Of a DNA stretch of 64,000 bases, positions 42,714-58,156 are shown one piece after another. How positions within the stretch are numbered: position 1 is the stretch's first letter; every line of letters starts with the position of its first letter. A program made the translations under genes and the position numbers. The notes beneath the pieces are model-generated. The model made no database searches. It was not told the DNA's origin and saw nothing but the letters and a program-made list of their open reading frames with translations. Where the stretch lies: IMG/VR virus record IMGVR_UViG_3300002350_000001; one strand, given 5' to 3'. Origin of the DNA: a virus.

Positions 42714-42904
42714 TGATGACACGAAAAGACTATGTAAAAACTTCAAACATTCTAAAGGGTTTTTCTGATGAAATTCATCCAGCAGTTTTTGAGGATTTGG
42801 TTGAGGAGTTTTGTCAATACTTTGCAAGCGATAATGAAAACTTTGATAAAGTAAGATTTGAAAAGGCTTGCGGTGTTGATGAGTTAGGATTGATGCTAGC
42901 ATGA
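42713..42904 (+). CDS. Early hypothetical protein (63 aa)
   Basis: MMTRKDYVKTSNIL...F..DNENFD..RF.KAC; coupled to the upstream gene. Confidence 0.7.
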   Translation: MMTRKDYVKTSNILKGFSDEIHPAVFEDLVEEFCQYFASDNENFDKVRFEKACGVDELGLMLA

Positions 42905-42999
42905 ATAGATTTATAACTTCCCTTGTTCAAATTCTTTTGTGGTTTCCAGTTATTCTTATTTTAGTATTTGCATACAGAGAACGCAAAAAGCAAAAGTAA
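42901..42999 (+). CDS. Single-TM micro-protein (32 aa)
   Basis: MNRFITSLVQILLWFPVILILVFAYRERKKQK. Confidence 0.55.
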   Translation: MNRFITSLVQILLWFPVILILVFAYRERKKQK

Positions 43000-43003
43000 A
43001 AAA

Positions 43004-43031
43004 AGATCCTAAGCATGATTTAAAACTGCTT
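43004..43031 (+). ncRNA. Repeated H-type pseudoknot element, copy 1
   Basis: P1 AGATC/GATTT, P2 AAGCA/TGCTT; 5 nt after a stop codon. Confidence 0.7.
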
Positions 43032-43181
43032 GAAGCTTCAACTAAAATTTTCGACCCCCGCAGTCGGGCGTGTCGCTTTACGTACGATGTGATTTTTACC
43101 ACAATTTTGAGCGGCGTGTCGTTTTGATTTTGTCGGTGATAAATGATAGGATTACAGAGTAATTAAATGAAAGGAAAACTA

Positions 43182-43346
43182 ATGAGTGAGTTTATTTTAA
43201 TTAAGTCAGTATGCGGAGAAAAGGGTTCTTTCGTAGATGTCTATGATTTAGACCTTAACCCTCATGGAGTTGTTTGTTGTGATAATTGTCGCAGCATTGT
43301 GGCTACTCGTGAAAATTGGTTTGCCGAACACGGCGTGTCGGTTTGA
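43182..43346 (+). CDS. Cys-containing micro-protein (54 aa)
   Basis: GAAAGGA RBS; C...CCDNC; the stop codon lies inside the next promoter's -35. Confidence 0.6.
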   Translation: MSEFILIKSVCGEKGSFVDVYDLDLNPHGVVCCDNCRSIVATRENWFAEHGVSV

Positions 43347-43399
43347 TTTTGTCAGACCACTATGGTAAGTTTGCAGTATTGAAAGAAAGGAAATGAAAA

Positions 43400-43600
43400 A
43401 TGGATAGAATAGAATACGCAGTAGAAAGAATTCACAATTGTGATGAGTGTGGAGGAACGGGCTCTCAGTTTTGGGCTAATGGTGAAGACTATGACTTTGA
43501 GACTTGTGAGGAGTGTAATCCTCACGAACTAATCTTTGACTATGATGGAAATGTAGTTTGGGATAACGGAACGCTATTTACAACACAGGAGGCTAACTAA
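43400..43600 (+). CDS. Zn-finger protein, CxxCxGxG...CxxC (66 aa)
   Basis: CDECGGTG...CEEC; GAAAGGA RBS. Confidence 0.7.
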   Translation: MDRIEYAVERIHNCDECGGTGSQFWANGEDYDFETCEECNPHELIFDYDGNVVWDNGTLFTTQEAN

Positions 43601-43601
43601 A

Positions 43602-43895
43602 ATGGGAAGTAATTTTGCTAATGATTTAGTTACGCTTGGAGATTTGGGTATTGTCTTAGACATTGAAAGTCAGATAGGTATGCACCTTCAGGCTAATCAT
43701 TATCCACCTGTTCCCAAGTCTATGGTCAAGCCTTGTGTTGAGGCTATTGATGCAGTAAATGATTTAGGACTATGGAATTTGGACATTGAGTTGCCTGAAG
43801 GTATCTCATGGCGTGGTTTGACTACCGCCCCCGCTTCGGCTATTATTGAAGCACACCACTTAGACGCTTGGATTATTGAACGAGAGGAATACTAA
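43602..43895 (+). CDS. Early hypothetical protein (97 aa)
   Basis: HLQANHYPPVP...AIIEAHHLDAW; His-rich. Confidence 0.7.
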   Translation: MGSNFANDLVTLGDLGIVLDIESQIGMHLQANHYPPVPKSMVKPCVEAIDAVNDLGLWNLDIELPEGISWRGLTTAPASAIIEAHHLDAWIIEREEY

Positions 43896-43896
43896 A

Positions 43897-44106
43897 ATGG
43901 AATACACTTACTCACTTACTACCTCGTATGACGGGGAACTAGTAAACACCTTGCGAGTATCAGACATGATGGAAGCAGTAGACGCATGGAATAAATGCGT
44001 AGACTATGGAAATGCTAAAGACTATGCTACTTATAACCTATCAGACCCAACAGGTAAAATGTATACAAAAACTTTCTATGCCAATGGCGAAGTAGTTATA
44101 AAATAG
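43897..44106 (+). CDS. Early hypothetical protein (69 aa)
   Basis: GAGGA RBS supports the start at 43897. Confidence 0.65.
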   Translation: MEYTYSLTTSYDGELVNTLRVSDMMEAVDAWNKCVDYGNAKDYATYNLSDPTGKMYTKTFYANGEVVIK

Positions 44107-44113
44107 GTATACA

Positions 44114-44326
44114 ATGAAAACTATGGATTATCGCATGGTTGATGTTCTCAACGCAGACCAATTAGAAGTAAATGATCTAATTGGTGTTGCGGATGAGATT
44201 GTAAAAGTTATTTCAATTGCCCCGCTTTCTGATGGGTTTTCACTTGTAATTGAAAATGAATTTGGTGAAAAAGATTTAATTGAAATTCTTGATGATGAAC
44301 AATTTGAGTTATTTATTTTAGAATAA
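44114..44326 (+). CDS. Early hypothetical protein (70 aa, acidic)
   Basis: ORF within the operon. Confidence 0.6.
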   Translation: MKTMDYRMVDVLNADQLEVNDLIGVADEIVKVISIAPLSDGFSLVIENEFGEKDLIEILDDEQFELFILE

Positions 44327-44418
44327 AAGCTGCAAAAAATTTCGAGGGGCCCGAAATGTCCGAATTGCCCCTTTACGTCCGATTTGATTTTTTCCCCTAT
44401 TTCTGATAAGATTATTCT

Positions 44419-44565
44419 ATGTTTAAGAAATCTAGTGAACAATTACGTCATCTGCAGGAGCTACGCAGATCTAATGCCGCTACCCCTTTACGTAACAAGA
44501 AAAAATACACTAGACAAAGTAACAAAAAAATGTTAGACTTAGAAAGTAAAGAGAGGCCCCAATGA
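44419..44565 (+). CDS. Leaderless basic micro-protein (48 aa)
   Basis: MFKKSSEQLRHLQELRRSNAATPLRNKKKYTRQ...; ATG 6 nt after TAAGAT. Confidence 0.6.
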   Translation: MFKKSSEQLRHLQELRRSNAATPLRNKKKYTRQSNKKMLDLESKERPQ

Positions 44566-45281
44566 AATTAAAACGCTCTAATGATAGGAAAGTTACTAAT
44601 GCTGTATCACCAAATGGAAAAACACCAACAATCGCCAACACTTTTGGATTACCTAGCGGCAAGGCTTACTCATGTCCTGGTGAGACCTCTGTATGCGCTA
44701 AAGTATGCTACGCAGGAAAGCTTGAAAAAGTCTACAAAGGTGTAAGAGATACACTATTACACAATTGGAATTTATTAAAAGACGCAGACCATGACACAAT
44801 GGAAGCATTACTTACAGACATGATTAATGATTTCAAGAAAGACTGTGAAAAACGAGAAGCCCCAATGTTATTTAGAATTCACTGGGATGGCGATTTCTTT
44901 AGTGACGAGTACGCATTCGCATGGAAGCATGTTATCTTAAATAATCCTGATGTTCAATTCTGGGTTTATACACGAGTAGCCTCTGCTGCCAATATGTTAA
45001 AAGATATAGATAACCTATCTCTCTATTTCTCAACAGATAGTGAGAATAAAGAAGTTGCTATTAGTCTTAATAAAGATAAGGGAATTCGTTTAGCATACCT
45101 TGCCGATACCTTCGCAATTGGGCAGGCAGATCTAAAGGCAATGATAGGCAAGCCTGGCGCTAAGTGCCCTGAAAATAAAAAAGCAATTCCGTTAATTGAC
45201 AAAGAGGGCTCTGCCTGTGTAAAATGTTCTCTGTGTGTCTATAATAAGGCGGACATAGTATTCTCTGCTAAAAAGCGGTAG
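44562..45281 (+). CDS. GP88-like protein with a Cys cluster (239 aa)
   Basis: SCPGETSVCAKVCYA, FRIHWDGDFF, FWVYTR, CP...CVKCSLC. Confidence 0.7.
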   Translation: MKLKRSNDRKVTNAVSPNGKTPTIANTFGLPSGKAYSCPGETSVCAKVCYAGKLEKVYKGVRDTLLHNWNLLKDADHDTMEALLTDMINDFKKDCEKREAPMLFRIHWDGDFFSDEYAFAWKHVILNNPDVQFWVYTRVASAANMLKDIDNLSLYFSTDSENKEVAISLNKDKGIRLAYLADTFAIGQADLKAMIGKPGAKCPENKKAIPLIDKEGSACVKCSLCVYNKADIVFSAKKR

Positions 45282-45478
45282 AGATAAACAGAAAGGCAAA
45301 ACTAGTGGAACTAATAATCCTATTAGGCATAGCCCTGCTAGCAACACTAATAATGGCTGGGGGGAAGTGATTTACCTCACAAATCTCAAATAATGAGATT
45401 TTTAGGGAAAATAACTTGACAAAGCCAAAAATAAATGAAATAATAAATACCATAACCAACAACAAAGGAGAAATACAA

Positions 45479-45643
45479 ATGACAGTATCAGTATCAACTT
45501 ACAAGGTCGGCGACACTTACACTTCACAGAAGTCAAAGGTCACAGGCGTTATCAAGGAAATCGTACCAACAGACAAGAACACAGTTCGTGTCAAACTTGA
45601 TGTAGAAGGTCAGACACGCTGGACAACTTGGAAAGCAAACTAA
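45479..45643 (+). CDS. Small beta-barrel (SH3/KOW-like) early protein (54 aa)
   Basis: AAAGGAG RBS; YKVGDTYTSQKSKVTGVIKEIVP. Confidence 0.7.
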   Translation: MTVSVSTYKVGDTYTSQKSKVTGVIKEIVPTDKNTVRVKLDVEGQTRWTTWKAN

Positions 45644-45664
45644 TTCCTAACAAAAAACAGGAAA

Positions 45665-45693
45665 AGTCCTGAGCATGACTACTAAAACTGCTC
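45665..45693 (+). ncRNA. Pseudoknot element, copy 2
   Basis: P1 AGTC/GACT, P2 GAGCA/TGCTC. Confidence 0.75.
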
Positions 45694-45766
45694 AATTTGA
45701 TTTCTTATCTAATAAATGTTAGACTAGATACCCCCAACAAAACACCAACAGAAAGGTAATACATAA

Positions 45767-46189
45767 ATGGCACGACAGAAAGCAATTAGCGTAAAAATCG
45801 CAACACCAAAGGTAATCAAGGCACTAGAAACTCGTCTAGCAGAACTAGAAAAGAACTATGCCTCACAAGAAGCCAACGAAGCAAAGCATGAAAAGGCTAT
45901 GGAGAAGTGGCGCAAGGAAGTAGCAAAGTTCGCTATGGCTAATTTTGCTAAGGCAGAAAACTTCCGCACAAACTATCGCTCATGGAACAAGACACTCAAT
46001 GTTGATTTTGATTTAACAGTTAGTGAAACAGACTTTCCTAAAGAGCCTGAGAAGGACTACGAAGTTCTACACCGCCACTCATACAATGAGATGAAAGAGG
46101 AGTTATCTAACGCTATCCGTATTCTCAAGATGACAGATGAGGAAGTAGTTTCTACTTCTACTTACAACGCTATCGCCCGATACTTGTAA
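45767..46189 (+). CDS. Early hypothetical protein (140 aa)
   Basis: GAAAGG RBS; own promoter. Confidence 0.75.
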   Translation: MARQKAISVKIATPKVIKALETRLAELEKNYASQEANEAKHEKAMEKWRKEVAKFAMANFAKAENFRTNYRSWNKTLNVDFDLTVSETDFPKEPEKDYEVLHRHSYNEMKEELSNAIRILKMTDEEVVSTSTYNAIARYL

Positions 46190-46195
46190 AATTAC

Positions 46196-46222
46196 TTTCC
46201 TGAGCATGAAATAAAACTGCTC
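46196..46222 (+). ncRNA. Pseudoknot element, copy 3
   Basis: P1 TTTC/GAAA, P2 GAGCA/TGCTC. Confidence 0.75.
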
Positions 46223-46250
46223 AACACCCCAACTAAGAAAGGAAAATAAA

Positions 46251-46418
46251 ATGACACTAGGCGGATACACTTACCAAATTGGTGATTTATTTACAACAAG
46301 CAAGACAGGCGTTACAGGACGAATTGAAAAGTTTGTTCCACAAAGTAAAAATGTAACTCGTGTAATGTTGCGCTTAGCAAACGGACAACAGCGTTTTGCT
46401 ATGGTAAAAACCTACTAA
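46251..46418 (+). CDS. Small beta-barrel (SH3/KOW-like) early protein (55 aa)
   Basis: GAAAGGA RBS; YQIGDLFTTSKTGVTGRIEKFVPQSKNVTRV; paralog of 45479; not in the ORF track. Confidence 0.7.
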   Translation: MTLGGYTYQIGDLFTTSKTGVTGRIEKFVPQSKNVTRVMLRLANGQQRFAMVKTY

Positions 46419-46423
46419 TAAAA

Positions 46424-46451
46424 TTATCCTGAGCATGATAAAAAACTGCTC
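46424..46451 (+). ncRNA. Pseudoknot element, copy 4
   Basis: P1 TTATC/GATAA, P2 GAGCA/TGCTC. Confidence 0.75.
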
Positions 46452-46563
46452 AAAAAATTTTCGAGAAAATGTGACCAAGATCACACAGCAGCTTTACGGG
46501 GGATTTGTATTTTTTCCATATTTCTGCTAGACTTGGTATATACCCAAAGAAAGGATGCCCCTA

Positions 46564-46827
46564 ATGATATCAACCGCATTAGCAATACAAGACGCAACAA
46601 AAGAAGCAATTCACGACGAGGATGTTATGGACATGGCTCGCTCTATTTATCTAAGCAGACATGAAGTTTCTGAGGATGAGTTTATCAGAATGATGTACAT
46701 TTATTCTGCTCATTTGTCTGCTATGACTGCTACTCTAGTTACTCATGCTTGCTTGACTGAAAGCCAACTAAATGATATGCTAGAAACAATAAAAGAAATG
46801 GAAGCCCTAGGAAAGGATATAGAATAA
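46564..46827 (+). CDS. Early helical hypothetical protein (87 aa)
   Basis: GAAAGGA RBS. Confidence 0.7.
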   Translation: MISTALAIQDATKEAIHDEDVMDMARSIYLSRHEVSEDEFIRMMYIYSAHLSAMTATLVTHACLTESQLNDMLETIKEMEALGKDIE

Positions 46828-47237
46828 TGGAAGAAACAAATACACACTACATGACACGAGAGTTTCTTGAAACTACCCTTGTACAAAACAAGGAGCGCAT
46901 TCAGCAACTTGAAGAGCACATACAGACAGTAACTCAGCGCTCATATGGTGAGGCTGCAGAGCGTAACCGTATGCGTAATGAAATGCAAGAATGGACCTTA
47001 GAAAACTTAAGCGACGGTACCATTTCAGAAGGTTCTGCAGAAGAGATTGCAAGCATTTGCGGTTTTGAGTTAACAAATGAATTTGAATTAGAGGTTACAG
47101 TTCAATATTCAGTTACAGTTAATGCTCGTGATGAAGAATCAGCAATTAATTTAATTCATGATATTGATTTTGATTCAGTGTCATATCCTGAAGGTGTTAC
47201 ATATCTATCATCCACTGTTGACAGAATAGATTTGTGA
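46827..47237 (+). CDS. Early hypothetical protein, coiled coil plus beta domain (136 aa)
   Basis: Coupled ORF. Confidence 0.7.
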   Translation: MEETNTHYMTREFLETTLVQNKERIQQLEEHIQTVTQRSYGEAAERNRMRNEMQEWTLENLSDGTISEGSAEEIASICGFELTNEFELEVTVQYSVTVNARDEESAINLIHDIDFDSVSYPEGVTYLSSTVDRIDL

Positions 47238-47250
47238 TAGGGGGCTATCC

Positions 47251-47279
47251 AAGGACCTGAGCACGTCTTTAAACTGCTT
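47251..47279 (+). ncRNA. Pseudoknot element, copy 5
   Basis: P1 AAGGAC/GTCTTT, P2 GAGCA/TGCTT. Confidence 0.7.
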
Positions 47280-47350
47280 TCGCCAGGCTGATTAGGGCGA
47301 TCATAGAAATACTATAGAGCTAGTTCATTGGGGGACTAAAAGAACCCATA

Positions 47351-47377
47351 CTACCTGAGCATGTAGGAAAAAGGCTC
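47351..47377 (+). ncRNA. Pseudoknot element, copy 6
   Basis: P1 CTAC/GTAG, P2 GAGC/GCTC. Confidence 0.7.
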
Positions 47378-47512
47378 AAAAAATTTTCGACCCGCTGTGA
47401 TTTTGATCACATTTACGATGGTGTCCGATTTTTCCCAATTTCTAATAACCCTATTTGACTTTGTCAGTCCTGTCTGCTAAGATTGATTCATATCAAGAAA
47501 GGATATTAATAA

Positions 47513-48529
47513 ATGGCACATGAACTAGAAACCCAAAATGGCGTTGCCTCATTCGCATCATTCCGTGAACCTGCTTGGCATGGTTTAGGAACTGTATTCA
47601 CAGAAGAAAAAACAACAACAGAAATGTTGTCTGCTGCTAATCTATCTAATTGGAATGTTCGTCTTGAAGACGTAAATATTCCATCTCACTTATCATCAGA
47701 TAAGAATTACCAATATGTTGTTCGTACTAATCCTACTGACAATTCCCAGACAGACATTTTAGGTGTTGTCGGTGAGCGTTACCATGTTTTGCAGAATGAG
47801 GATTTATTCTCATTTGGTGATAACATTCTTGACGGTGGAGGTCGTTGGGAAACTGCTGGCTCTATTCGTGGAGGTCGTGTAGTATTTGGTTCTCTTGCTC
47901 TTGAACGTGAGACAGTACTAGACCCTAGCGGTGTTGCAGATAAGGTAAAAACTTATTTGCTCATTAACACATCACATGATGGCTCAATCGCTATTCAAGC
48001 AAGCATTACACCTGTTCGTGTAGTGTGCGCTAACACTCTCAATCTTGCTTTAGGCTCTAAGCGTGGCAAGAACGCTATCAAGCAATCTTTCAAAATCCGT
48101 CATACTCAGACGGCTAATGGTAAGGTTCAAATTGCTCGTGAGACTTTAGGTCTTGCTAATAAATACATGGACGCTTTTGATGTTATGGCTAAGGCTATGA
48201 TTGAAAAAGAAATCACCGCTGGTCAATTCAATGACATTATTCTTGCTGCTTACCCTAAGCCTGAAAAAGATGCTAAGGGCGCAATCAAGAAGTGGGAAAA
48301 CAAGGTTGATGTTATCAATGACATTTACACAGGCGAATTCAATGGTATGATTGCTAATACCGCTTGGGGTGCTTTCAATGCTCTAACTGAACGCCTTGAT
48401 TGGCACCGCTCTGCTCGTGGTGGGAATAACGAAAGTATTCTTGCTGCTGCTTCTGGTTTTGATGCTACAATTACAGCAGAAAAAAATCGTTTGCTAAAAG
48501 TTGTAAAAGATGTTTTAGCGATAGCGTAA
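47513..48529 (+). CDS. DUF932/DUF945 family phage/plasmid-like protein (338 aa)
   Basis: MAHELE...REPAWHGLG, LGVVGERYHVLQNEDLF, WETAGSIRGGRVVF, NTSHDGS, TPVRVVCANTL, TAWGAFNALTE. Confidence 0.85.
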   Translation: MAHELETQNGVASFASFREPAWHGLGTVFTEEKTTTEMLSAANLSNWNVRLEDVNIPSHLSSDKNYQYVVRTNPTDNSQTDILGVVGERYHVLQNEDLFSFGDNILDGGGRWETAGSIRGGRVVFGSLALERETVLDPSGVADKVKTYLLINTSHDGSIAIQASITPVRVVCANTLNLALGSKRGKNAIKQSFKIRHTQTANGKVQIARETLGLANKYMDAFDVMAKAMIEKEITAGQFNDIILAAYPKPEKDAKGAIKKWENKVDVINDIYTGEFNGMIANTAWGAFNALTERLDWHRSARGGNNESILAAASGFDATITAEKNRLLKVVKDVLAIA

Positions 48530-48540
48530 ATAAATACGCA

Positions 48541-48567
48541 ACTCCTGAGTAAGAGTATAAACTGCTC
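48541..48567 (+). ncRNA. Pseudoknot element, copy 7
   Basis: P1 ACTC/GAGT, P2 GAGTA/TGCTC (U-G wobble); followed by a T-tract. Confidence 0.75.
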
Positions 48568-48700
48568 ACTTTTTTATTTAGATCAAAAGCTGCTAAAAAA
48601 ATTCGAAACCATGATATTTTTTTATATTGTTTAATTACGAACGACTTGCTTTTTTCCCCAGTTTTTGGTATTCTTTATTTACCACAGAAAGGAAAAATAA

Positions 48701-48934
48701 ATGTCTAGTTTTCTAGAAAATGAAAATCAAATGGTTATTGATGCTATCTATCATGAGATTGGAGAAATGCTAGTTGAAGACTGGGTTAACTCCAATTTAG
48801 ATGAAGGGCAGATGTTTGCAGATTTTAGATTTGCAGAGATGTCTGATGATAATTACATTAAGGGTAGATTTAATCTATTCTATGATTTAAAACCAGGGGA
48901 CCAATACTATCTAGAATGGGATGAGGAAGCATAA
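48701..48934 (+). CDS. Acidic early protein (77 aa)
   Basis: GAAAGGA RBS; own promoter. Confidence 0.7.
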   Translation: MSSFLENENQMVIDAIYHEIGEMLVEDWVNSNLDEGQMFADFRFAEMSDDNYIKGRFNLFYDLKPGDQYYLEWDEEA

Positions 48935-49104
48935 TGTTGGGTTATGACTTAGAGGATTTAAACATAATGATGGATTCACTAGCAGAGGTTATTCAGATTG
49001 AAGAATCTTCTCAAACCCCGTCAATTTCTGATAGGAATCTAGGAGGACTTAAAACAAGCTTGTTTTTCTTACAAGGCTTGTGGGCAGAAGGGTATTTTGA
49101 CTGA
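48934..49104 (+). CDS. Micro-ORF (56 aa)
   Basis: MLGYDLEDL...FLQGLWAEGYFD; TAATG overlap with the upstream stop. Confidence 0.6.
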   Translation: MLGYDLEDLNIMMDSLAEVIQIEESSQTPSISDRNLGGLKTSLFFLQGLWAEGYFD

Positions 49105-49206
49105 GGGGCATGTGTCCTAAATCACACCCAAAAGGCTTTACGAACGCTTGACAAAAACCCCCATTTTTTGAGATAATTGCATTACGACCAACAGAAAGGA
49201 CCCTAA

Positions 49207-49959
49207 ATGCCAAATTATTGTTTTAATACCTTGACTATTCAAGGACCGAAAGAACAAGTAGACTCTATTAAGGCTAAGTTAAATGAGCCTTTTCAAAGAC
49301 ATCATGACCAATGGAATACAGAAACTCAGCAAATGGAAATAAAAGAGTATTTCTATAATAATCCTGTGTTTGCATTTTGGAATATTTATAATCCAGTACA
49401 AGACGGTATCTCTAACGAGGTCTACCTAGGTCAGCCTGACCATACTATTCCATTTGCAGAACAAATGAAATTTAAGACTAATGATTGGTATTCATGGAAT
49501 GTCCGTAATTGGGGAACCAAATGGGATGTTGCTGTAGGAGATGAAGATAACTATCCTGATACAGAGTTATTAGAACATATGGATAGAGGAGAAGACCAGT
49601 GGGTTATTTATAAGTTCAATACCGCTTGGTCTCCACCTGCTCCTGCTATGGAGAAGTTGTCTGCTCTAGTTCCTAACTGTGTAGTTACTCTTTCCTTTGA
49701 GGAAGAAACAGGTTGGGGTGGCGAGTATGAGTTTGTCAATGGAGAAATGACTGCAGAATCTAATTATGATTCTAAGTGCCGTGACTGTGATGCAGAAGAC
49801 CAAATGGAATACTGCGAAAACGATTGTGGAGAAATCTGCAGTGCTTGTCATTGGTTAGGTGAGGCAGACCTAGAGTGTGTTGCAGAATGTGATGAGCACA
49901 AGATATACTTGGACGAGGAACATGTACCAGATTACAGAAAGGATGAAATCAATGTCTAA
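49207..49959 (+). CDS. DUF1281/YubB (Api92-like) ferredoxin-fold protein with Cys-rich C-terminus (250 aa)
   Basis: MPNYCFNTLTIQG, WYSWNVRNWGTKWD, FNTAWSPP, FEEETGWGG; CRDC..C...C..C..C tail. Confidence 0.8.
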   Translation: MPNYCFNTLTIQGPKEQVDSIKAKLNEPFQRHHDQWNTETQQMEIKEYFYNNPVFAFWNIYNPVQDGISNEVYLGQPDHTIPFAEQMKFKTNDWYSWNVRNWGTKWDVAVGDEDNYPDTELLEHMDRGEDQWVIYKFNTAWSPPAPAMEKLSALVPNCVVTLSFEEETGWGGEYEFVNGEMTAESNYDSKCRDCDAEDQMEYCENDCGEICSACHWLGEADLECVAECDEHKIYLDEEHVPDYRKDEINV

Positions 49960-50155
49960 TTACTTATTAGAATATATGAAGATACATCTAATTAGTTTAG
50001 AACAAGATTTAGAGAATATAGCCCAAGAAATGGAATTGCTTGACCCTGAATCTAAAGCCTGTAAAGAATTAGACTATGAATATAATCATATGTCAGGACA
50101 GATTCTTTCTACCCGCCATTTTATACAGGTAGGAGAAGAACATGCAGGCAATTAA
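49952..50155 (+). CDS. Coiled-coil early protein (67 aa)
   Basis: GAAAGGA RBS before ATG 49952. Confidence 0.65.
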   Translation: MSNYLLEYMKIHLISLEQDLENIAQEMELLDPESKACKELDYEYNHMSGQILSTRHFIQVGEEHAGN

Positions 50156-50417
50156 TGAGTTAGAACCATATCTGCAGAAGGCTGTTGACGCTGGCATATC
50201 TGGATTGGATATCATGCACGGTCATCTCAAAACATTAATGCTGGAGGCTGAGCGGGAACTAGAAGAGGCAAGCCGCATTGAGATTGAGAACGACTATTCA
50301 GACGCAATAGAATCCATGGAGCGTAAATACTGGGAAGGCCAATGTGACGCTCTTTCACACCTATATGCATTAACATATCAACTATCATTTGCCATAGCAG
50401 AAAGGGACGGGCAATGA
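50142..50417 (+). CDS. Early hypothetical protein (91 aa)
   Basis: AGGAG RBS. Confidence 0.65.
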   Translation: MQAINELEPYLQKAVDAGISGLDIMHGHLKTLMLEAERELEEASRIEIENDYSDAIESMERKYWEGQCDALSHLYALTYQLSFAIAERDGQ

Positions 50418-50749
50418 GTTTAGATCTACAAGAACAAACACGTATGCTAGATGTATATCGTGATATTGAAGATATCATTGACAGAATTAGTAAACTTCCT
50501 ATTGGAATGCCGCTAGTCTGGGTATATGTCTGGGATGTTGCTCGTCAACTATGGCATGACATCATGGAAGGTCAGGAAGAAGAATTCTGCACAGCCATGG
50601 ATGAAGAAGAGATGTGGGAACTGTTTTGGACCCAGGCTGATAAGAATGGGTTTACTTTAGAATACGGAACAGAGGACCTATATGAGTCTATCCGTGATTG
50701 GATGTTTGACCAGGGTATTATTGAAGAAGTAGAAGAGGAAGAGGAATGA
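50414..50749 (+). CDS. Acidic early protein (111 aa)
   Basis: ATGA overlap; strongly acidic composition. Confidence 0.7.
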   Translation: MSLDLQEQTRMLDVYRDIEDIIDRISKLPIGMPLVWVYVWDVARQLWHDIMEGQEEEFCTAMDEEEMWELFWTQADKNGFTLEYGTEDLYESIRDWMFDQGIIEEVEEEEE

Positions 50750-50816
50750 TGTACGAGCAGTTGACATTAAACTTAGATTTTGATATCATTGAGCAAACTA
50801 TAGAAAGGGAAGAGTA

Positions 50817-51164
50817 ATGGGAGCTCGTTGTACATTTGTATTTAAACAGTCAGAGGAGCAAGCTGTAGCACTATACAGTCATTGGGGTGAAGACTCTATG
50901 TATGAGGACCTAGCAGCAGCATTGCGACATGCAGCACCACGGGTAGGAGACCAATCCTACTACGTAAGAATGGCAGTTAGTTATTTACTGCAGCATAGTA
51001 TTTTGGATGAGACAGGTTATGGCCTATATGCATGTAATCCTAATGACCTAGGTTTCATGGACCATCCAATTGTAATTAATCTATTAGATAGTACAATTCA
51101 AGATGACACTGGAATTCACACTATTGATGAATTTGTTAATTATCATGCAGGCCTAAAGGTTTAG
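50817..51164 (+). CDS. Early hypothetical protein (115 aa)
   Basis: MGAR...LYSHWG motif; own promoter at 50761. Confidence 0.7.
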   Translation: MGARCTFVFKQSEEQAVALYSHWGEDSMYEDLAAALRHAAPRVGDQSYYVRMAVSYLLQHSILDETGYGLYACNPNDLGFMDHPIVINLLDSTIQDDTGIHTIDEFVNYHAGLKV

Positions 51165-51297
51165 TTGAGGGTCCGTGTGGTGAGCGGACTGTATACGTGG
51201 GACGAGGGGTCCTCCCACGACAATAAGGGTGGAGCGCAGGCTGTGGTGGGCTTGCGCTCCCCCAACATCTTTGATACAATAAGAGAGGGTATAAATA

Positions 51298-51537
51298 ATG
51301 ACATACAGGATTAGTAAGGGGATTACCCCCGAAGAGCGAGTAGCCAAAAGACTAAAAACAATTGTAGAAGACTTAGATTTAGACCTAGAACAAACTGGAG
51401 TAATGCTTGCTAGAGTATTGCCACATTTGACTTATACAAGATTAGTCACTATGATAGAAGCGGCACAAGAGGAAAAAGAGTTTATTCTAAACCCTAAGAA
51501 GCGACATGAAAGTTGGATACAAAATGGACTATGGTAA
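51298..51537 (+). CDS. Hypothetical protein (79 aa)
   Basis: TGATACAAT promoter and GAGGG RBS. Confidence 0.7.
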   Translation: MTYRISKGITPEERVAKRLKTIVEDLDLDLEQTGVMLARVLPHLTYTRLVTMIEAAQEEKEFILNPKKRHESWIQNGLW

Positions 51538-51832
51538 GGTAGCAGACATACTAGCAGTAATCTATAATGATGGTGTAGATTTAGAAGCAGTAGAATACCT
51601 GCCTTCTGAGTATTGGTTAGAGTGTGAGGACGGGATAACCCTTGCTACATTTATTTCATCTGGTTGGGCAGAGCCTACCGAAATGGGTAAATCTCAGTTA
51701 GAGTATGCCTGGCGTGTTCTTTGTGCTGCCAGAAGTCTTGACCCTGAAATAATGTATGAAACTCCACTTGAGTTTTTTGAGGCACAGATAGTAGAAGCTG
51801 ATGTTATCCCAATTGAGGAGGGTAGAAAGTAA
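51524..51832 (+). CDS. Hypothetical protein (102 aa)
   Basis: Acidic; resembles 51832..52116 (K..IL..(I/L).......F.....GL.LA). Confidence 0.65.
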   Translation: MDYGKVADILAVIYNDGVDLEAVEYLPSEYWLECEDGITLATFISSGWAEPTEMGKSQLEYAWRVLCAARSLDPEIMYETPLEFFEAQIVEADVIPIEEGRK

Positions 51833-52116
51833 TGCTTGACTATAAAACAAAATGCAATATTCTATCAGATCTATGGGAGAACTATAGAGATGAAGAATCT
51901 TTTATAGATTTTATTGAATATAACGATCTTGGATTACCTATGGCATATATGCTACGGGAAGGTTTAGTCAACGAGGTAACAGAAACAGGACAGTTATATA
52001 TCAATGAGACATTTAATTTATTTATTGCTGCCCTTCAAATTAAAGAAGAAGAAATCAAAGAAGGCACAACATTAGATATCTTATTAGATATGGCTGAGAA
52101 AAAGCAAAACCCATAA
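51832..52116 (+). CDS. Hypothetical protein (94 aa)
   Basis: GAGG RBS; KCNILSDLW..Y....F.DFIEYNDLGLPMAY. Confidence 0.7.
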   Translation: MLDYKTKCNILSDLWENYRDEESFIDFIEYNDLGLPMAYMLREGLVNEVTETGQLYINETFNLFIAALQIKEEEIKEGTTLDILLDMAEKKQNP

Positions 52117-52810
52117 GATTTTTCGACAAACCTTTTAGGAATTTATTAGATTACGAACATCGAATATTTTTCCCATTTTTTTAGATTACGAACAAACAAT
52201 ATTTTTCCCCAAACCCTATATCCAAACATATCTATATCCTTATACCAGGTATACTTCTTATAGTAGTAATTGGTATTCTTTATATACCCCGCCATTTTTG
52301 AAAAAATAAGATTACGAACGAGCTTTTTTAAGCCCAGCATTTTGACGGGCATCTTACCACACGACGGGCGTTTTGTCAAGGGGCGCAAAAAACGGGACGG
52401 TATAAAAAAGATTACAACCAATACCCTATATACAAACACTATATCCTGGATAAAATAGATTACGAAAGCTATAAATTTTTTCCTGGATTTTCCAAATATT
52501 ATCCATATATTTTATAACATTTTGTTATTGTTTTCCACAATTTTGAGCAATTTTTATAACATTTCTATATCAAATATTGAGACATGTTTTGCTCATATTG
52601 TGGGTAAATGGATACTTGACAAACAATTTGATATGTGGTATATGGGGAAATTCCCTGTTTTAAAATTTGGAAAGGGGGTTTTGCCGCTGCAGCATTACGA
52701 ACGCCCCTCTTAAAAGTGGTCCATTCCCCACTATCCTCCACTTTCCTCCATTCATAGAATATAAAATTATCCACAGTAAGATTTAAATGTGGATAAACCT
52801 GTGGATAACT
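52117..52810. other. Non-coding region with DnaA boxes and iteron-like AGATTACGAAC repeats; candidate origin
   Basis: Perfect DnaA boxes at 52767, 52788 and 52800; one-mismatch boxes at 52499, 52531 and 52599; AGATTACGAA(C/A) at 52148, 52183, 52309 and 52457; ATTACGAAC at 52694. Confidence 0.6.
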
Positions 52811-52815
52811 ATGAA

Positions 52816-53448
52816 TTATTGCCTATATTTTTGTCTATTTATTTCCCAATTGTCAATATCTCTTGGTAGATCAAAGTCTTCTGTCCAATCATTTATCTTT
52901 ACTACATCAAAGCTATGCTTGTTAGTTTTTAACTGTTCGTATAAACACCAACCACCAGGTAGATTAAAATAATCAGAAGACTCTATAATAGAGCGTATTG
53001 TATTATCTAGTATAGGTATAGACTTTCCATTAAACCCAATTCCCCATATTTCTTTCCAAGGCTTTCCAGTTATCTCTGAAGCCCTATCCCTAAGATAAAA
53101 TGATAGATCAGATTTATCATTCATTATTGTTTCAACTGCTTCATCTGTAAAATATACATCTGCAAAAACGAGAATATTTCTCTCTGATGACCATATATCC
53201 CTGCTAGACCAAAACTTGGCTACATCTTTCCATGCTTTATCAACAGGGGGGACATAGGTTTGAGCCCCATTTACGGTATCTTCTCCATCATTACACACTA
53301 TAACAATATTATCTGTATACTTAGAAAACTGCCTATAAGTTCTTTCAATTAATACTTCTTCTTCAATTAATAAACGATGCTTGGGGGTTCCCCTATAATT
53401 TCCCCACCTGGTTCCATTTCCTGCAGCTAATATTAAAACCTTTATCAT
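52816..53448 (-). CDS. Sugar/nucleotidyltransferase (NTP_transf-like, 210 aa)
   Basis: VLILAAGNGTRWG, PKHRLLI.EEVLIERT, FADVYF, EDFDLP.D. Confidence 0.8.
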   Translation of the reverse strand: MIKVLILAAGNGTRWGNYRGTPKHRLLIEEEVLIERTYRQFSKYTDNIVIVCNDGEDTVNGAQTYVPPVDKAWKDVAKFWSSRDIWSSERNILVFADVYFTDEAVETIMNDKSDLSFYLRDRASEITGKPWKEIWGIGFNGKSIPILDNTIRSIIESSDYFNLPGGWCLYEQLKTNKHSFDVVKINDWTEDFDLPRDIDNWEINRQKYRQ

Positions 53449-53482
53449 AAATCAAGAATACCATATCTGGTATCATAGATAT

Positions 53483-53638
53483 ATGTATTGTCGTCATGTT
53501 TATGAGTATGTTTATGCAGATATCTGCCCTCATTGTGGGAAAGATACTCATGAAACTGATTGGAAATTTGAAGCAGAATTACATAAAGAGTGGATATCAT
53601 CTGGTAAAGCATCTTCTCAGGGGTGGTGGTCTATCTAA
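53483..53638 (+). CDS. Cys/His micro-protein (51 aa)
   Basis: MYCRHVYEYVYADICPHCG; leaderless promoter. Confidence 0.6.
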   Translation: MYCRHVYEYVYADICPHCGKDTHETDWKFEAELHKEWISSGKASSQGWWSI

Positions 53639-53862
53639 TGCCTAGCCAAGAATCAAAATGGTATAAAGATATAAGACTGATTAAGGCTTTGGACGAAATT
53701 CGTCAGAAGAATCTGGCCTTTATGTCTTATTGTTATTATTGTGACGCTAAGTCCATAGATATAAAAGCAGTCAAAGAAAAGCTATATCCTGTATGTGAAA
53801 AACATGATCAGGAAAATAACATAAATAAACTATTGGAGTCTCAATCCTCATTTGAGGAATAA
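53638..53862 (+). CDS. Hypothetical protein with CxxC...C (74 aa)
   Basis: CYYC...VCEKH; TAATG overlap with the upstream stop. Confidence 0.6.
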   Translation: MPSQESKWYKDIRLIKALDEIRQKNLAFMSYCYYCDAKSIDIKAVKEKLYPVCEKHDQENNINKLLESQSSFEE

Positions 53863-54050
53863 TACGAGGGTAGATCAGTAAAATCCCCATATGCTTCTTC
53901 GCATAATGGGCAATAACTATTAGCAGTATTTGTTTGATCTAGGCTAATCAGCAATAATCCCTTATCCTGCATATCTAATATTTCTGGATCTACTCGTCCA
54001 TGGATTATAGGTATTAATTTAGCTTTACATGTTATACAGTTTGTTATCAT
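53841..54050 (-). CDS. Zn-ribbon micro-protein (69 aa)
   Basis: CITC..LIPIIHG...CPLC; TGCTAAACT promoter. Confidence 0.6.
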   Translation of the reverse strand: MITNCITCKAKLIPIIHGRVDPEILDMQDKGLLLISLDQTNTANSYCPLCEEAYGDFTDLPSYYSSNED

Positions 54051-54126
54051 ACTAGGATAAGTTTAGCATACTTCTATATACCGCCCTGATTTGCATACTG
54101 CCCATATATGCGCTATAATTGATACT

Positions 54127-54199
54127 AGAGACGTTAGCCCTCCCTTTCTGGGGCTATTTCCTCTTCTCCTGAGCATGAGGTTAAAAGGCTCCCTTTCTG
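54127..54199 (+). ncRNA. Candidate small RNA: anti-SD hairpin plus pseudoknot copy 8 (54165-54191)
   Basis: Promoter TTGCAT-17-TATAAT (54091-54119); TAGCCC/GGGCTA stem with loop CCCTTTCT; P1 TCTC/GAGG, P2 GAGC/GCTC; no ORF. Confidence 0.55.
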
Positions 54200-54236
54200 T
54201 ATTGAAATACTGCCCATGTTGTGAGATAATGAATAT

Positions 54237-54425
54237 ATGAGTGATTTAGATGAATTTATGAAAGACCCATGGAAACGATTTAATGAAATGCGTAAAACCC
54301 CACATGAATGTGATTATGACTATAGAATAGACTCATCAGGAACAATGTTTTTTGAAATATGTAAATTATGCTTAGATACAAAAGGGGTCGTTGAAATGAA
54401 TAATAATGAGGAATTAAATGATTAA
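54237..54425 (+). CDS. Cys/His micro-protein (62 aa)
   Basis: HECDY...ICKLC; leaderless promoter. Confidence 0.6.
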   Translation: MSDLDEFMKDPWKRFNEMRKTPHECDYDYRIDSSGTMFFEICKLCLDTKGVVEMNNNEELND

Positions 54426-57681: not shown

Positions 57682-57758
57682 GCAGCAATAGCTCAGTTGG
57701 TTAGAGCCCCCGACTCATAATCGGGTCGTCGTAGGTTCAAGTCCTACTTGCTGCACCA
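57682..57758 (+). tRNA. tRNA with CAT anticodon, probably Ile2 (lysidine type)
   Basis: GCAGCAA acceptor; arm CCCGA-CTCATAA-TCGGG; TTCAAGT T-loop; encoded CCA. The CGACTCATAATCG arm is typical of Ile2 rather than Met. Confidence 0.85.
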
Positions 57759-57759
57759 A

Positions 57760-57830
57760 GGGATTGAAGCATTAAAGTGATGCTCAGGACTTTTAATCCT
57801 GAGAAGAAGGAGCATTACCTTCCAGTCCTA
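57760..57830 (+). tRNA. tRNA-Lys(UUU) with an atypical T-loop
   Basis: GGGATTG/CAGTCCT acceptor; CAGGA-CTTTTAA-TCCTG; T arm GAAGG-AGCATTA-CCTTC. Confidence 0.75.
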
Positions 57831-57831
57831 C

Positions 57832-57905
57832 GCATCTGTAACTCAGTTGGTTAGAGTACCTGCCTTATATGCAGAGAGCCGTAGGTTCAAGTCCTACCAG
57901 ATGTA
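57832..57905 (+). tRNA. tRNA-Ile(UAU)
   Basis: GCATCTG/CAGATGT; CTGC-CTTATAT-GCAG; GTAGG-TTCAAGT-CCTAC. Confidence 0.85.
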
Positions 57906-57909
57906 CGAT

Positions 57910-57981
57910 ACCTCTGTAACTCAGCGGAAGAGTAACGGACTTCTAATCCGTAAGTCGTAGGTTCGATCCCTACCAGGGGTG
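57910..57981 (+). tRNA. tRNA-Arg(UCU)
   Basis: ACCTCTG/CAGGGGT; ACGGA-CTTCTAA-TCCGT; TTCGATC T-loop. Confidence 0.88.
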
Positions 57982-58002
57982 CTACAATTAATATTCATTT
58001 TA

Positions 58003-58076
58003 GGTCTGTTAGCTCAGTTGGTTAGAGCGCTACCCTGTCACGGTAGAGGTCGTGGGTTCAAGTCCCATACAGATCG
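58003..58076 (+). tRNA. tRNA-Asp(GUC)
   Basis: GGTCTGT/ACAGATC; CTACC-CTGTCAC-GGTAG. Confidence 0.9.
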
Positions 58077-58081
58077 CATAA

Positions 58082-58156
58082 GGCACTATCGTCTATCGGT
58101 TAGGACATCGCCCTTTCACGGCGGAAAGACGGGTTCGATTCCCGTTAGTGCTGCCA
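58082..58156 (+). tRNA. tRNA-Glu(UUC)
   Basis: GGCACTA/TAGTGCT; CGCC-CTTTCAC-GGCG; encoded CCA. Confidence 0.9.

Follow-up and report, generated by a model that had tools for sequence, protein, structure and literature searches.

The window analysed here, a 64-kb part of the 107,731-bp IMG/VR virus record IMGVR_UViG_3300002350_000001 (36% GC), comes from a freshwater actinophage and carries eight copies of a short RNA element built of two helices, P1 and P2, that interlock as an H-type pseudoknot. All eight copies lie on the plus strand and share the layout NNNC-CU-GAGCA-U-GNNN-(N)UAAA-C-UGCUC (Table 1). Our analysis revealed that these eight repeats are members of a large family of classical H-type RNA pseudoknots of about 27 nucleotides (nt). 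A preliminary description of the window had listed eight copies with their positions, strand and P1 pairings, and rereading of the sequence gave the same sites and the same pairs, as well as the P2 variants it reported, namely a compensatory AAGCA/UGCUU in copy 1 and G-U wobbles in copies 5 and 7. Its common layout holds overall, except that it passed over the tail AGGCUC, which recurs in copies 6 and 8 and costs the A14-U26 pair. Six copies (1, 2, 3, 4, 5 and 7) stand shortly behind the stop codon of an open reading frame (ORF), in line with the 5–22 nt given in that description. The ORF of 32 amino acids (aa) ahead of copy 1 is membrane-peptide-like and is missed at a 40-aa cut-off.

Table 1 Coordinates, pairing, scores and surroundings of the eight pseudoknot copies in the window
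Copy	Positions	Strand	Helices and loops	Score (bits)	Immediate context
1	43004..43031	+	P1 AGAUC/GAUUU; P2 AAGCA/UGCUU, compensatory A-U	36.0	4–5 nt 3' of stop of 32-aa ORF 42901-42999
2	45665..45693	+	P1 AGUC/GACU; longer L3, spacer 10	36.3	21 nt 3' of stop of ORF 45416-45643; -35-like TTGATT begins 3–4 nt 3' of copy
3	46196..46222	+	P1 UUUC/GAAA	45.8	6 nt 3' of stop of ORF 45767-46189; ATG 46251 is 28 nt 3'
4	46424..46451	+	P1 UUAUC/GAUAA	46.4	6 nt 3' of stop of ORF 46251-46418 (double stop)
5	47251..47279	+	P1 AAGGAC/GUCUUU; P2 GAGCA/UGCUU with G-U; L2 = C	36.2	15 nt (to 4-bp P1 core) 3' of stop of ORF 46827-47237
6	47351..47377	+	P1 CUAC/GUAG; variant tail AGGCUC, 4-bp P2	36.5	~70 nt 3' of copy 5; no adjoining stop codon
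7	48541..48567	+	P1 ACUC/GAGU; P2 GAGUA/UGCUC with U-G; L2 = A	38.1	11 nt 3' of stop of DUF932 gene 47513-48529; then T-run
8	54165..54191	+	P1 UCUC/GAGG; variant tail AGGCUC	36.0	3' of promoter-like site and hairpin (54135-54156), no ORF; 45 nt 5' of ATG 54237

When the whole 107,731-bp genome was searched with a degenerate pattern, eight matches were obtained on the forward strand, none on the reverse strand and none with a reversed control pattern, so that the phage genome holds no further copies by this pattern; the 40 kb of minus-strand structural genes contains none. A covariance model built from 77 sequences and run on the 64-kb window with filters off recovered exactly the eight copies, at 36–46 bits (E 7e-12 to 8.5e-9), with the next-best score at 14.5 bits. 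A candidate ninth copy on the minus strand at 48080-48115 (CCGUC-UGAGUAU-GACGG with a distant UGCUU) was left unscored by the model and lies inside the DUF932 ORF; it is probably due to chance.

A family of covarying pseudoknots in phages

The exact-word scan of IMG/VR searched for CCTGAGCATG, a spacer N6-16 and CTGCTC, by which the P2 sequence was fixed. It found the motif in at least 119 IMG/VR contigs. Among the matches listed, 96 of 132 have the 8-nt spacing of the window copies and nearly all have P1 flanks that pair, a concentration that chance would not be expected to give. In the alignment of 77 instances from which the covariance model was built, P1 columns 5-18 and 6-17 are paired in 77/77 sequences and show all four Watson-Crick types, and P1 is paired in ~96–98% of cells overall. 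The covariation score of P1 is 0.418, compared with 0.084 in shuffles, and sliding the P1 partners by one to three columns lowers the pairing from 98% to 25–40%.

Because the word scan held P2 fixed, degenerate copies were sought in the fetched loci with the model and a custom scanner, the latter yielding 177 matches against 3 in reversed-sequence controls. A second alignment, enriched for variants and including five cultured phages, revealed changes in P2 as well: pair 10-30 is GC in 37 sequences, AU in 7, GU in 3 and unpaired in none, pair 12-28 has one A-U, and pair 13-27 has nine U-G and one U-A. In a copy with a spacer of 10 from another locus, A11-U29 is replaced by G-C. The compensatory changes in P1 and P2 thus support both helices of the H-type knot. 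In cellular genome contigs, a scan for the two words with a spacer of N7-10 plus AA, the canonical 8-nt spacing excluded, gave mostly chance matches; these serve as a negative control, with a P1 of at least 3 bp in only 17 of 120, compared with nearly all of the viral matches.

The consensus that emerges has a P1 of 4 bp, in which three pairs vary freely and the closing C7-G16 is invariant, a P2 of GAGCA/UGCUC, a loop L1 of C-U and a loop L3 of N-U/N-AAA-C. The C-U of L1, A22-A24 and C25 are near-invariant, with A22-A24, C25 and U26 conserved at 90% or more. At the single junction base (L2), U predominates (126 copies, against 18 with A, 6 with C and 1 with G). Directly 3' of the motif, 72% of copies have an A, and P2 may possibly be extended by a U9-A(+1) pair. 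The eight bases that follow are strongly depleted of G (2–10%), and the nine bases 3' of the motif have 2–13% G and show no conserved pairing. Nearest-neighbour energies of the separate hairpins average -2.0 kcal/mol for P1 and -4.7 kcal/mol for P2.

Covariation of P1 and P2, together with the orientation of the motif along its flanking genes, strongly supports selection on an RNA pseudoknot and not on a duplex-DNA site, as the preliminary description had proposed. That the motif acts as DNA, through a single-stranded fold or as a protein site, or that it stimulates frameshifting or read-through, is in our view extremely improbable. The conserved words could be protein sites, and a distance of 5–9 nt from the A-site codon is the spacing of frameshift and read-through pseudoknots; however, the covariation includes G-U pairs in two interlocked helices, and the motif is strictly co-oriented with transcription. 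Recoding is further opposed by slippery heptamers XXXYYYZ in just 10/164 cases, compared with 6/164 in a control window, by upstream stops that are UAA in 71%, by the double stop ahead of copy 4 and by the wide spread of distances from the stop codon. The motif was therefore rejected as a -1 frameshift or read-through stimulator.

We found the pseudoknot family in no RNA catalogue. At the gathering threshold, Rfam 15 matched only six tRNAs in the whole window, and with E up to 10 it gave nothing on the motif in the region 45600-48650, in seven motif-bearing loci or in five cultured-phage loci; the preliminary description had likewise recognised no known RNA class. Literature searches by motif words and topic returned nothing relevant, and the motif may be listed in the paper on '10,000 candidate structured RNAs in viruses'.

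The preliminary description had placed the element in the early region. It is specific neither to early genes nor to actinophages, and its carriers infect bacteria of at least four phyla or classes. A search of cultured phages, by BLAST with one copy and then with the covariance model, identified Mycobacterium phage Labelle (1 copy, after gene 85), Lentibacter phage ICBM1, Paracoccus phage ParMal1, Synechococcus phage S-EIVl (6 copies) and Vibrio phage D456 (2 copies) at 36–48 bits. ParMal1 is a T7-like carrier of the Autographiviridae with its own single-subunit RNA polymerase. Further BLAST matches were obtained in Arthrobacter, Aeromonas and Acinetobacter phages and in gut Firmicutes phages, and the hosts of the carriers include Actinobacteria, Alpha- and Gammaproteobacteria and Cyanobacteria. 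Forty IMG/VR records hold 1–7 clustered copies each. Ten carrier genomes, complete or nearly so, range from 35 to 51% GC and have almost no proteins in common by BLAST.

DNA nearly identical to that of the window's phage is found in many lake metagenomes from 2016–2024. Homologues of its DUF932 protein are mostly from Mycobacterium, Streptomyces, Microbacterium, Arthrobacter and Gordonia phages, and WhiB genes are present in 16 motif-bearing loci. Samisti12, of the Streptomyces BE-cluster phages that are the nearest cultured relatives by protein, has no copy of the motif.

A few real-looking copies were found in contigs of metagenome-assembled genomes (MAGs) or isolates, and those found are probably prophages, plasmids or mis-binned phage DNA. 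Motif-bearing examples are two contigs binned as Methanobrevibacter MAGs, one Polaromonas MAG contig and one contig of the isolate Ktedonobacter robiniae. In one of the Methanobrevibacter-binned contigs (L139), the motif lies just 5' of a gene for an ArdC-like antirestriction protein/M78 peptidase; another cellular-contig copy is 28 nt 3' of a Mu-like gpT major head gene, and the Ktedonobacter copy stands beside a tRNA array.

Placement between genes

The context counts rest on loci selected for holding the motif. Among 170 copies, 145 lie outside ORFs. The upstream gene is co-oriented with the motif in 135 cases versus 6, and the downstream gene in 121 versus 15. The distance from the stop codon to P1 starts abruptly at 5 nt, with 3 cases below 5 nt, 21 at 5 nt, 12 at 6 nt and 9–11 at 8–9 nt, and has a tail that extends past 30 nt. 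The mRNA channel of the ribosome reaches ~11–12 nt downstream of the P-site codon, and we infer that 5 nt is about the nearest that a folded element can sit to a terminating ribosome. On its other side, the next start codon most often lies 20–39 nt past the motif. The usual arrangement is thereby a stop codon, 5–9 nt, the pseudoknot, ~20–30 nt and the next start codon or a tRNA. In the depositors' annotation of S-EIVl, four of six copies are 5–6 nt past a stop and 21–27 nt ahead of a start, and the annotations of Labelle, ICBM1 and ParMal1 show the same order of stop, motif and start. Since gaps of ~56 nt have no room for both a terminator and a promoter, the motif lies inside polycistronic RNA.

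A tRNA on the same strand follows 14 copies at a distance of 4–13 nt, and no copy has a tRNA within 60 nt upstream. Nine relatives carry a fixed unit of DUF932 gene, motif and tRNA-Asp, with the tRNA 4–13 nt past the motif; the window's own array of six tRNAs lies elsewhere, at 57682-58153.

This arrangement bears on whether the element is a transcription terminator or attenuator, intrinsic or factor-assisted, that uses a pseudoknot in place of a long GC hairpin. Its place past stops and often just ahead of promoters is typical of terminators, and in some relatives the same syntenic slot holds a GC hairpin with a T-tract, for example after the DUF932 gene in one locus and, in the RNA contig of a relative, after the 140-aa gene (loose end at 46193). 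Five or more T in the next 8 nt are present in 24% of copies, which is ~3–4 times chance by our own binomial estimate and includes copy 7 and several copies in cellular contigs; in addition, in an alternative nested fold the sequence up to the +1 A forms a bulged hairpin of 7 bp. However, 76% of copies have no U-rich tail, the helices are weak, and the motif is present in a T7-like phage with a single-subunit polymerase. Furthermore, tRNAs 4–13 nt and ORF starts 21–27 nt downstream leave no room for a promoter, so that read-through is required. We therefore rejected the motif as an intrinsic terminator and regard a terminating role of any kind as very improbable. In the window, three of the eight copies have five or more T in the next 8 nt, consistent with the earlier remark that most copies are without a U-tract.

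Linkage to the neighbouring genes is asymmetric. Upstream families keep the motif while the downstream neighbour changes, as seen for DUF932 (16/19) and for two unknown families (15/19 and 13/18), and families that are preceded by the motif have lower occupancy and a single upstream partner. Analysis of neighbour-gene functions revealed no association of any gene function with the motif, clustering of the neighbouring proteins revealed no universal family beside it, and comparison of ten proteomes revealed almost no protein common to the carriers. The most widespread candidate partner, GP88 (PF17338), was present in only 15 of 41 records. Among complete carriers the count was 7 of 12, and the absence of GP88 from the other 5 means that it is not an obligate partner. 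In the window, a GP88-family gene of unknown function occupies 44562-45281, and thirteen further records have homologues inside or adjoining the motif cluster.

The main alternative to a role for the upstream gene, a role for the downstream gene, seems possible though rather unlikely. The motif would then be a cap-like 5' structure or barrier against 5'-to-3' decay by RNase J or 5'-end-dependent scanning by RNase E, or a standby or enhancer platform or operator ~20 nt ahead of the start codon, and in either case a bacterial-virus analogue of plant-virus exoribonuclease-resistant RNAs (xrRNAs) such as coremin. This is consistent with the peak of start codons 20–39 nt from the motif and with the A/U-rich, G-poor spacer followed by a Shine-Dalgarno sequence. 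In three loci (L057, L058 and L086), a -10-like box would place P1 within 1–3 nt of the transcript start, and the motif occupies the slot that holds a 5' hairpin in sister genes. The motif also resembles coremin, which blocks scanning ribosomes too, in its C-G-closed 4-bp hairpin, a loop of the form C...A-D and the spacer U(U)AAACU. On the other hand, tRNAs, for which such protection is needless, come directly after 14 copies, and no copy lies downstream of a tRNA; the occupancy of the motif is higher for upstream than for downstream families; and a promoter adjoins the 3' side of several copies, so that the next gene's own transcript would be without the motif. Vibrio, Aeromonas and Acinetobacter hosts, to our knowledge, are without RNase J, and neither the G at loop position 2 nor the obligatory second hairpin of coremin is found in the motif.

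Promoter-like sequences directly 3' of the motif were observed repeatedly. Copy 2 and its homologues have a -35-like TTGATT that begins 2–4 nt 3' of the motif. Past copies 1, 4, 6 and 7 lies a common cassette (43040-43120, 46452-46520, 47378-47440 and 48568-48640) that consists of AAAA(A)TTTTCGA, next, for copies 4 and 6, a perfect CRP/FNR-type box TGTGA-N6-TCACA, and after this TTTACG and a -10-like CAnAAT. These cassettes look like regulated early promoters. The word AAATTTTCGA is also found 3' of the motif in three other phages. At 54090-54240, a promoter-like site without an ORF (TTTGCA-18-TATAAT) is followed by a terminator-like hairpin (54135-54156), copy 8, a second promoter-like site (54202-54230) and the ATG at 54237; this may be a small stand-alone RNA with the pseudoknot at its end.

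In a lineage of phages with an HSP20 gene (five loci and others), the stretch between the HSP20 gene and the motif is conserved and structured, with a TATAAT box and two hairpins, AGUCUGC-ACCCCGUCACUGGGGAGUC-GCAGACU and CGGGUCGCUACCCG. The HSP20 gene has its own -10 box and a 5' hairpin adjoining its Shine-Dalgarno sequence, and this hairpin may be a thermosensor.

Proposed capping of the upstream message and competing roles

Based on the placement behind stop codons and the linkage to upstream genes, we tentatively favour the motif as a cis-acting boundary element between cistrons that caps the 3' end of the upstream message. The long transcript would be cut in the G-poor single strand just 3' of the motif, and where a tRNA follows, RNase P would make the cut. 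The newly made 3' end would then carry the compact pseudoknot, whose fold probably gains stability from base triples of C8/U9 in the major groove and A22-A24 in the minor groove, as in luteoviral pseudoknots. In that position it would slow 3'-to-5' exonucleases such as PNPase and RNase II/R, and it could also be a bulkhead that keeps ribosomes or scanning nucleases from entering the next cistron. As a consequence, neighbouring genes on one transcript would gain different half-lives and yields. Since the carriers share almost no proteins and their hosts span phyla, any partner has to be universal or absent, and a universal host factor may recognise the invariant bases of P2, L1 and L3. The data establish the fold, the family, the position and orientation of its members, the need for read-through and the asymmetry of linkage; cleavage, stalling of nucleases, base triples and such a factor are presumed parts of the proposed mechanism. 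Among the functions put forward in the preliminary description, protection or processing of 3' ends remains the best fit, while efficient termination and ligand sensing are disfavoured.

RNA data were available as metatranscriptome contigs of relatives, in which conservation confounds depth and neither transcript ends nor strand can be resolved. One such contig spans a stop codon into the relative's own copy of the motif, and the summed contig depth drops 15–20 fold across copies 3 and 7; these data are in keeping with a 3' cap and are only suggestive. In four river and lake metatranscriptome assemblies, contigs are 90–99% identical to the 140-aa gene (45767-46189) and the DUF932 gene (47513-48529). 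Relatives of the window's phage therefore appear to be present in environmental RNA libraries, with DNA carry-over as a possible source.

Several observations weigh against a 3' cap. The low nearest-neighbour energies of P1 and P2 make a plain mechanical block doubtful unless base triples or a bound factor contribute, and a pure roadblock has no need of near-invariant P2, L1 and L3 sequences. Phages of the HSP20 lineage have an extended -10-like TATAAT past the upstream stop and ahead of the motif; its distance to P1 is ~7 nt in three loci, which would put the motif in, or at the very 5' end of, the leader of the downstream gene. Many copies end 10–12 nt ahead of a Shine-Dalgarno sequence, which is equally compatible with service to that gene. 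Furthermore, the choice of loci for motif presence inflates the linkage counts.

In another view, the motif is specifically bound by a conserved factor of the host (PNPase, an RNA chaperone, a ribosomal protein or the 30S subunit) or by a small ligand, and the pseudoknot would be the surface recognised by a regulator of many phage messages at once. Near-invariant P2, L1, A22-A24 and C25 with a free P1, in phages that are almost disjoint in gene content, form a pattern typical of binding cores, and the layout of P1, 2-nt L1, P2 and A-rich L3 mirrors that of the preQ1-I aptamer. We nevertheless consider it distinctly unlikely: up to 8 copies per genome behind unrelated genes are unlike a riboswitch, L2 is one variable base where preQ1-I has a ligand-pairing C, the motif shows no association with gene function and no match to an Rfam riboswitch, and the analyses made identified no candidate factor.

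Invariance of the unpaired bases and of P2 would also suit a very small self-cleaving ribozyme, or a site for a dedicated endonuclease, by which polycistronic phage RNA would be cut between genes in the manner of the twister and hammerhead ribozymes of other phages. Host phylum and type of RNA polymerase are immaterial for the motif, as would be the case for a self-contained RNA. However, 27 nt with 9–10 base pairs leave very few bases for a catalytic core, and we know of no ribozyme as small as 27 nt; no ribozyme family was among the Rfam matches, and one RNA contig reads through the motif. Self-cleavage or dedicated cutting is accordingly rated as highly doubtful. An outcome of wider consequence, which we regard as unlikely, is that the motif represents a new class of RNA, sufficient in itself and either nuclease-resistant or self-processing, with which phages of many phyla cut and cap individual cistrons. 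As a coremin-like roadblock it would be the first counterpart in bacterial viruses of the xrRNAs of eukaryotic viruses; otherwise it would be the smallest self-cleaving ribozyme in nature.

Differential expression of neighbouring genes on one long phage transcript is poorly understood outside T7 and T4. A 27-nt element that is near-invariant and yet covaries across phyla, and that recurs at one and the same spot behind a stop codon, points to a general, so far unnamed rule of phage mRNA architecture, in which some universal machinery of the host, for instance the ribosome or the exonucleases, probably takes part. Cultivable carriers (Labelle in M. smegmatis, S-EIVl in Synechococcus PCCC-A2c, ICBM1 in Lentibacter SH36 and ParMal1 in Paracoccus) make the function directly testable, and the size of the motif suits nuclear magnetic resonance or crystallography as well as use as a portable insulator or stabiliser of mRNA.

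Comparison with known systems

Structured RNA right behind stop codons of polycistronic phage mRNA is shared with the RNase III sites and 3' stem-loops of T7 and T4 and with stabilisers of the repetitive extragenic palindromic (REP) type, where after cleavage a protective 3' structure sets differential stability. Those structures are long duplexes or GC hairpins without conserved sequence, whereas the motif is a pseudoknot conserved in sequence across phyla.

Several other known elements were considered and rejected. The boxA of nut and rrn sites, with a consensus like GCUCUUUAACAA, is single-stranded beside a hairpin and lies downstream of a promoter used by the host RNA polymerase; the motif has only UGCUC in common with boxA-boxB, and there it is base-paired, with +1 being A in 72% of copies and not U, and it is present in a T7-like phage as well. 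Type III antitoxins like ToxI consist of tandem ~36-nt repeats by a ToxN-type toxin gene; copies of the motif are dispersed, and no toxin family turned up among the neighbours. An acceptor mimic of the tRNA-like type of turnip yellow mosaic virus was rejected since ACCA is 3' of only 9/167 copies.

The preQ1-I aptamer (RF00522), an H-type knot of ~30 nt with P1, a 2-nt L1, P2 and an A-rich tail, is alike in the order and size of its elements; it is found as a single copy in leaders of queuosine or transport genes. The motif is unlike it in having no link to queuosine genes and a P2 that hides no Shine-Dalgarno sequence, and it was rejected as a preQ1-I aptamer by the lack of an Rfam match, the lack of a ligand-pairing C in L2 and the presence of multiple copies behind unrelated genes.

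The STAXI RNA motif (RF01728) of Enterobacteriales consists of 2–3 tandem pseudoknot units, often with UUCG tetraloops (Weinberg et al. 2010, PMC2864571). Both are small pseudoknot units in mobile elements or phage-like regions, and one copy of the present motif, in L139, lies by an ArdC-like gene. As a STAXI element the motif was rejected, given that its copies occur singly and scattered, with one to each intergenic gap, its loop is CUGAGCAU, and cmscan gave no match at E ≤10.

Coremin, also called xrRNA_C, is known from plant and fungal RNA viruses (Dilweg et al. 2019, 2023; PMC6546385, PMC10520033). The C-U of its spacer U(U)AAACU is essential, and its loop has the consensus YGAD/YGNNAD, in which moving the G abolishes activity (PMC10520033). 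Its 4-bp first hairpin (hp1) closed by C-G, followed by an AAACU spacer, is found in the motif as well, with C7-G16 invariant and the spacer bases conserved at 90% or more. The two are also alike in a loop that starts with C and ends in A-(A/G/U), in the spacer C-U, which is >90% conserved in the motif, and in their tiny size, intergenic or untranslated location and a pseudoknot, which in coremin is suspected. As coremin proper the motif was rejected: in its loop (C-U-G-A-G-C-A-U) the G is at position 3, with U at position 2 in nearly all copies, and it has no second hairpin, UGCUC pairing back to the loop with covariation. The hosts differ too, being bacteria in the case of the motif, some of them without a 5'-3' exonuclease.

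The pseudoknots of luteoviruses and enamoviruses have a short S1, an L1 that starts with C and an A-rich L3. Those of BWYV (beet western yellows virus), PEMV-1 (pea enation mosaic virus-1) and ScYLV (sugarcane yellow leaf virus), which promote -1 frameshifting, are like the motif in size (~27–28 nt), in the short S1 and in the 1–2 nt L1 starting with C. The likeness extends to the single junction base, the A-rich L3 of 6–7 nt suited to minor-groove triples, and the placement 5–9 nt downstream of the A-site codon. Unlike them, the motif comes with neither a slippery heptamer nor an overlapping frame, and a stop codon occupies the A site; its P2 has 5–6 bp compared with 3 bp, and it is present in many copies per genome and in DNA phages. 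The family is uncatalogued, and the kind to which it belongs, cis-elements built as compact H-type pseudoknots, is a known one.

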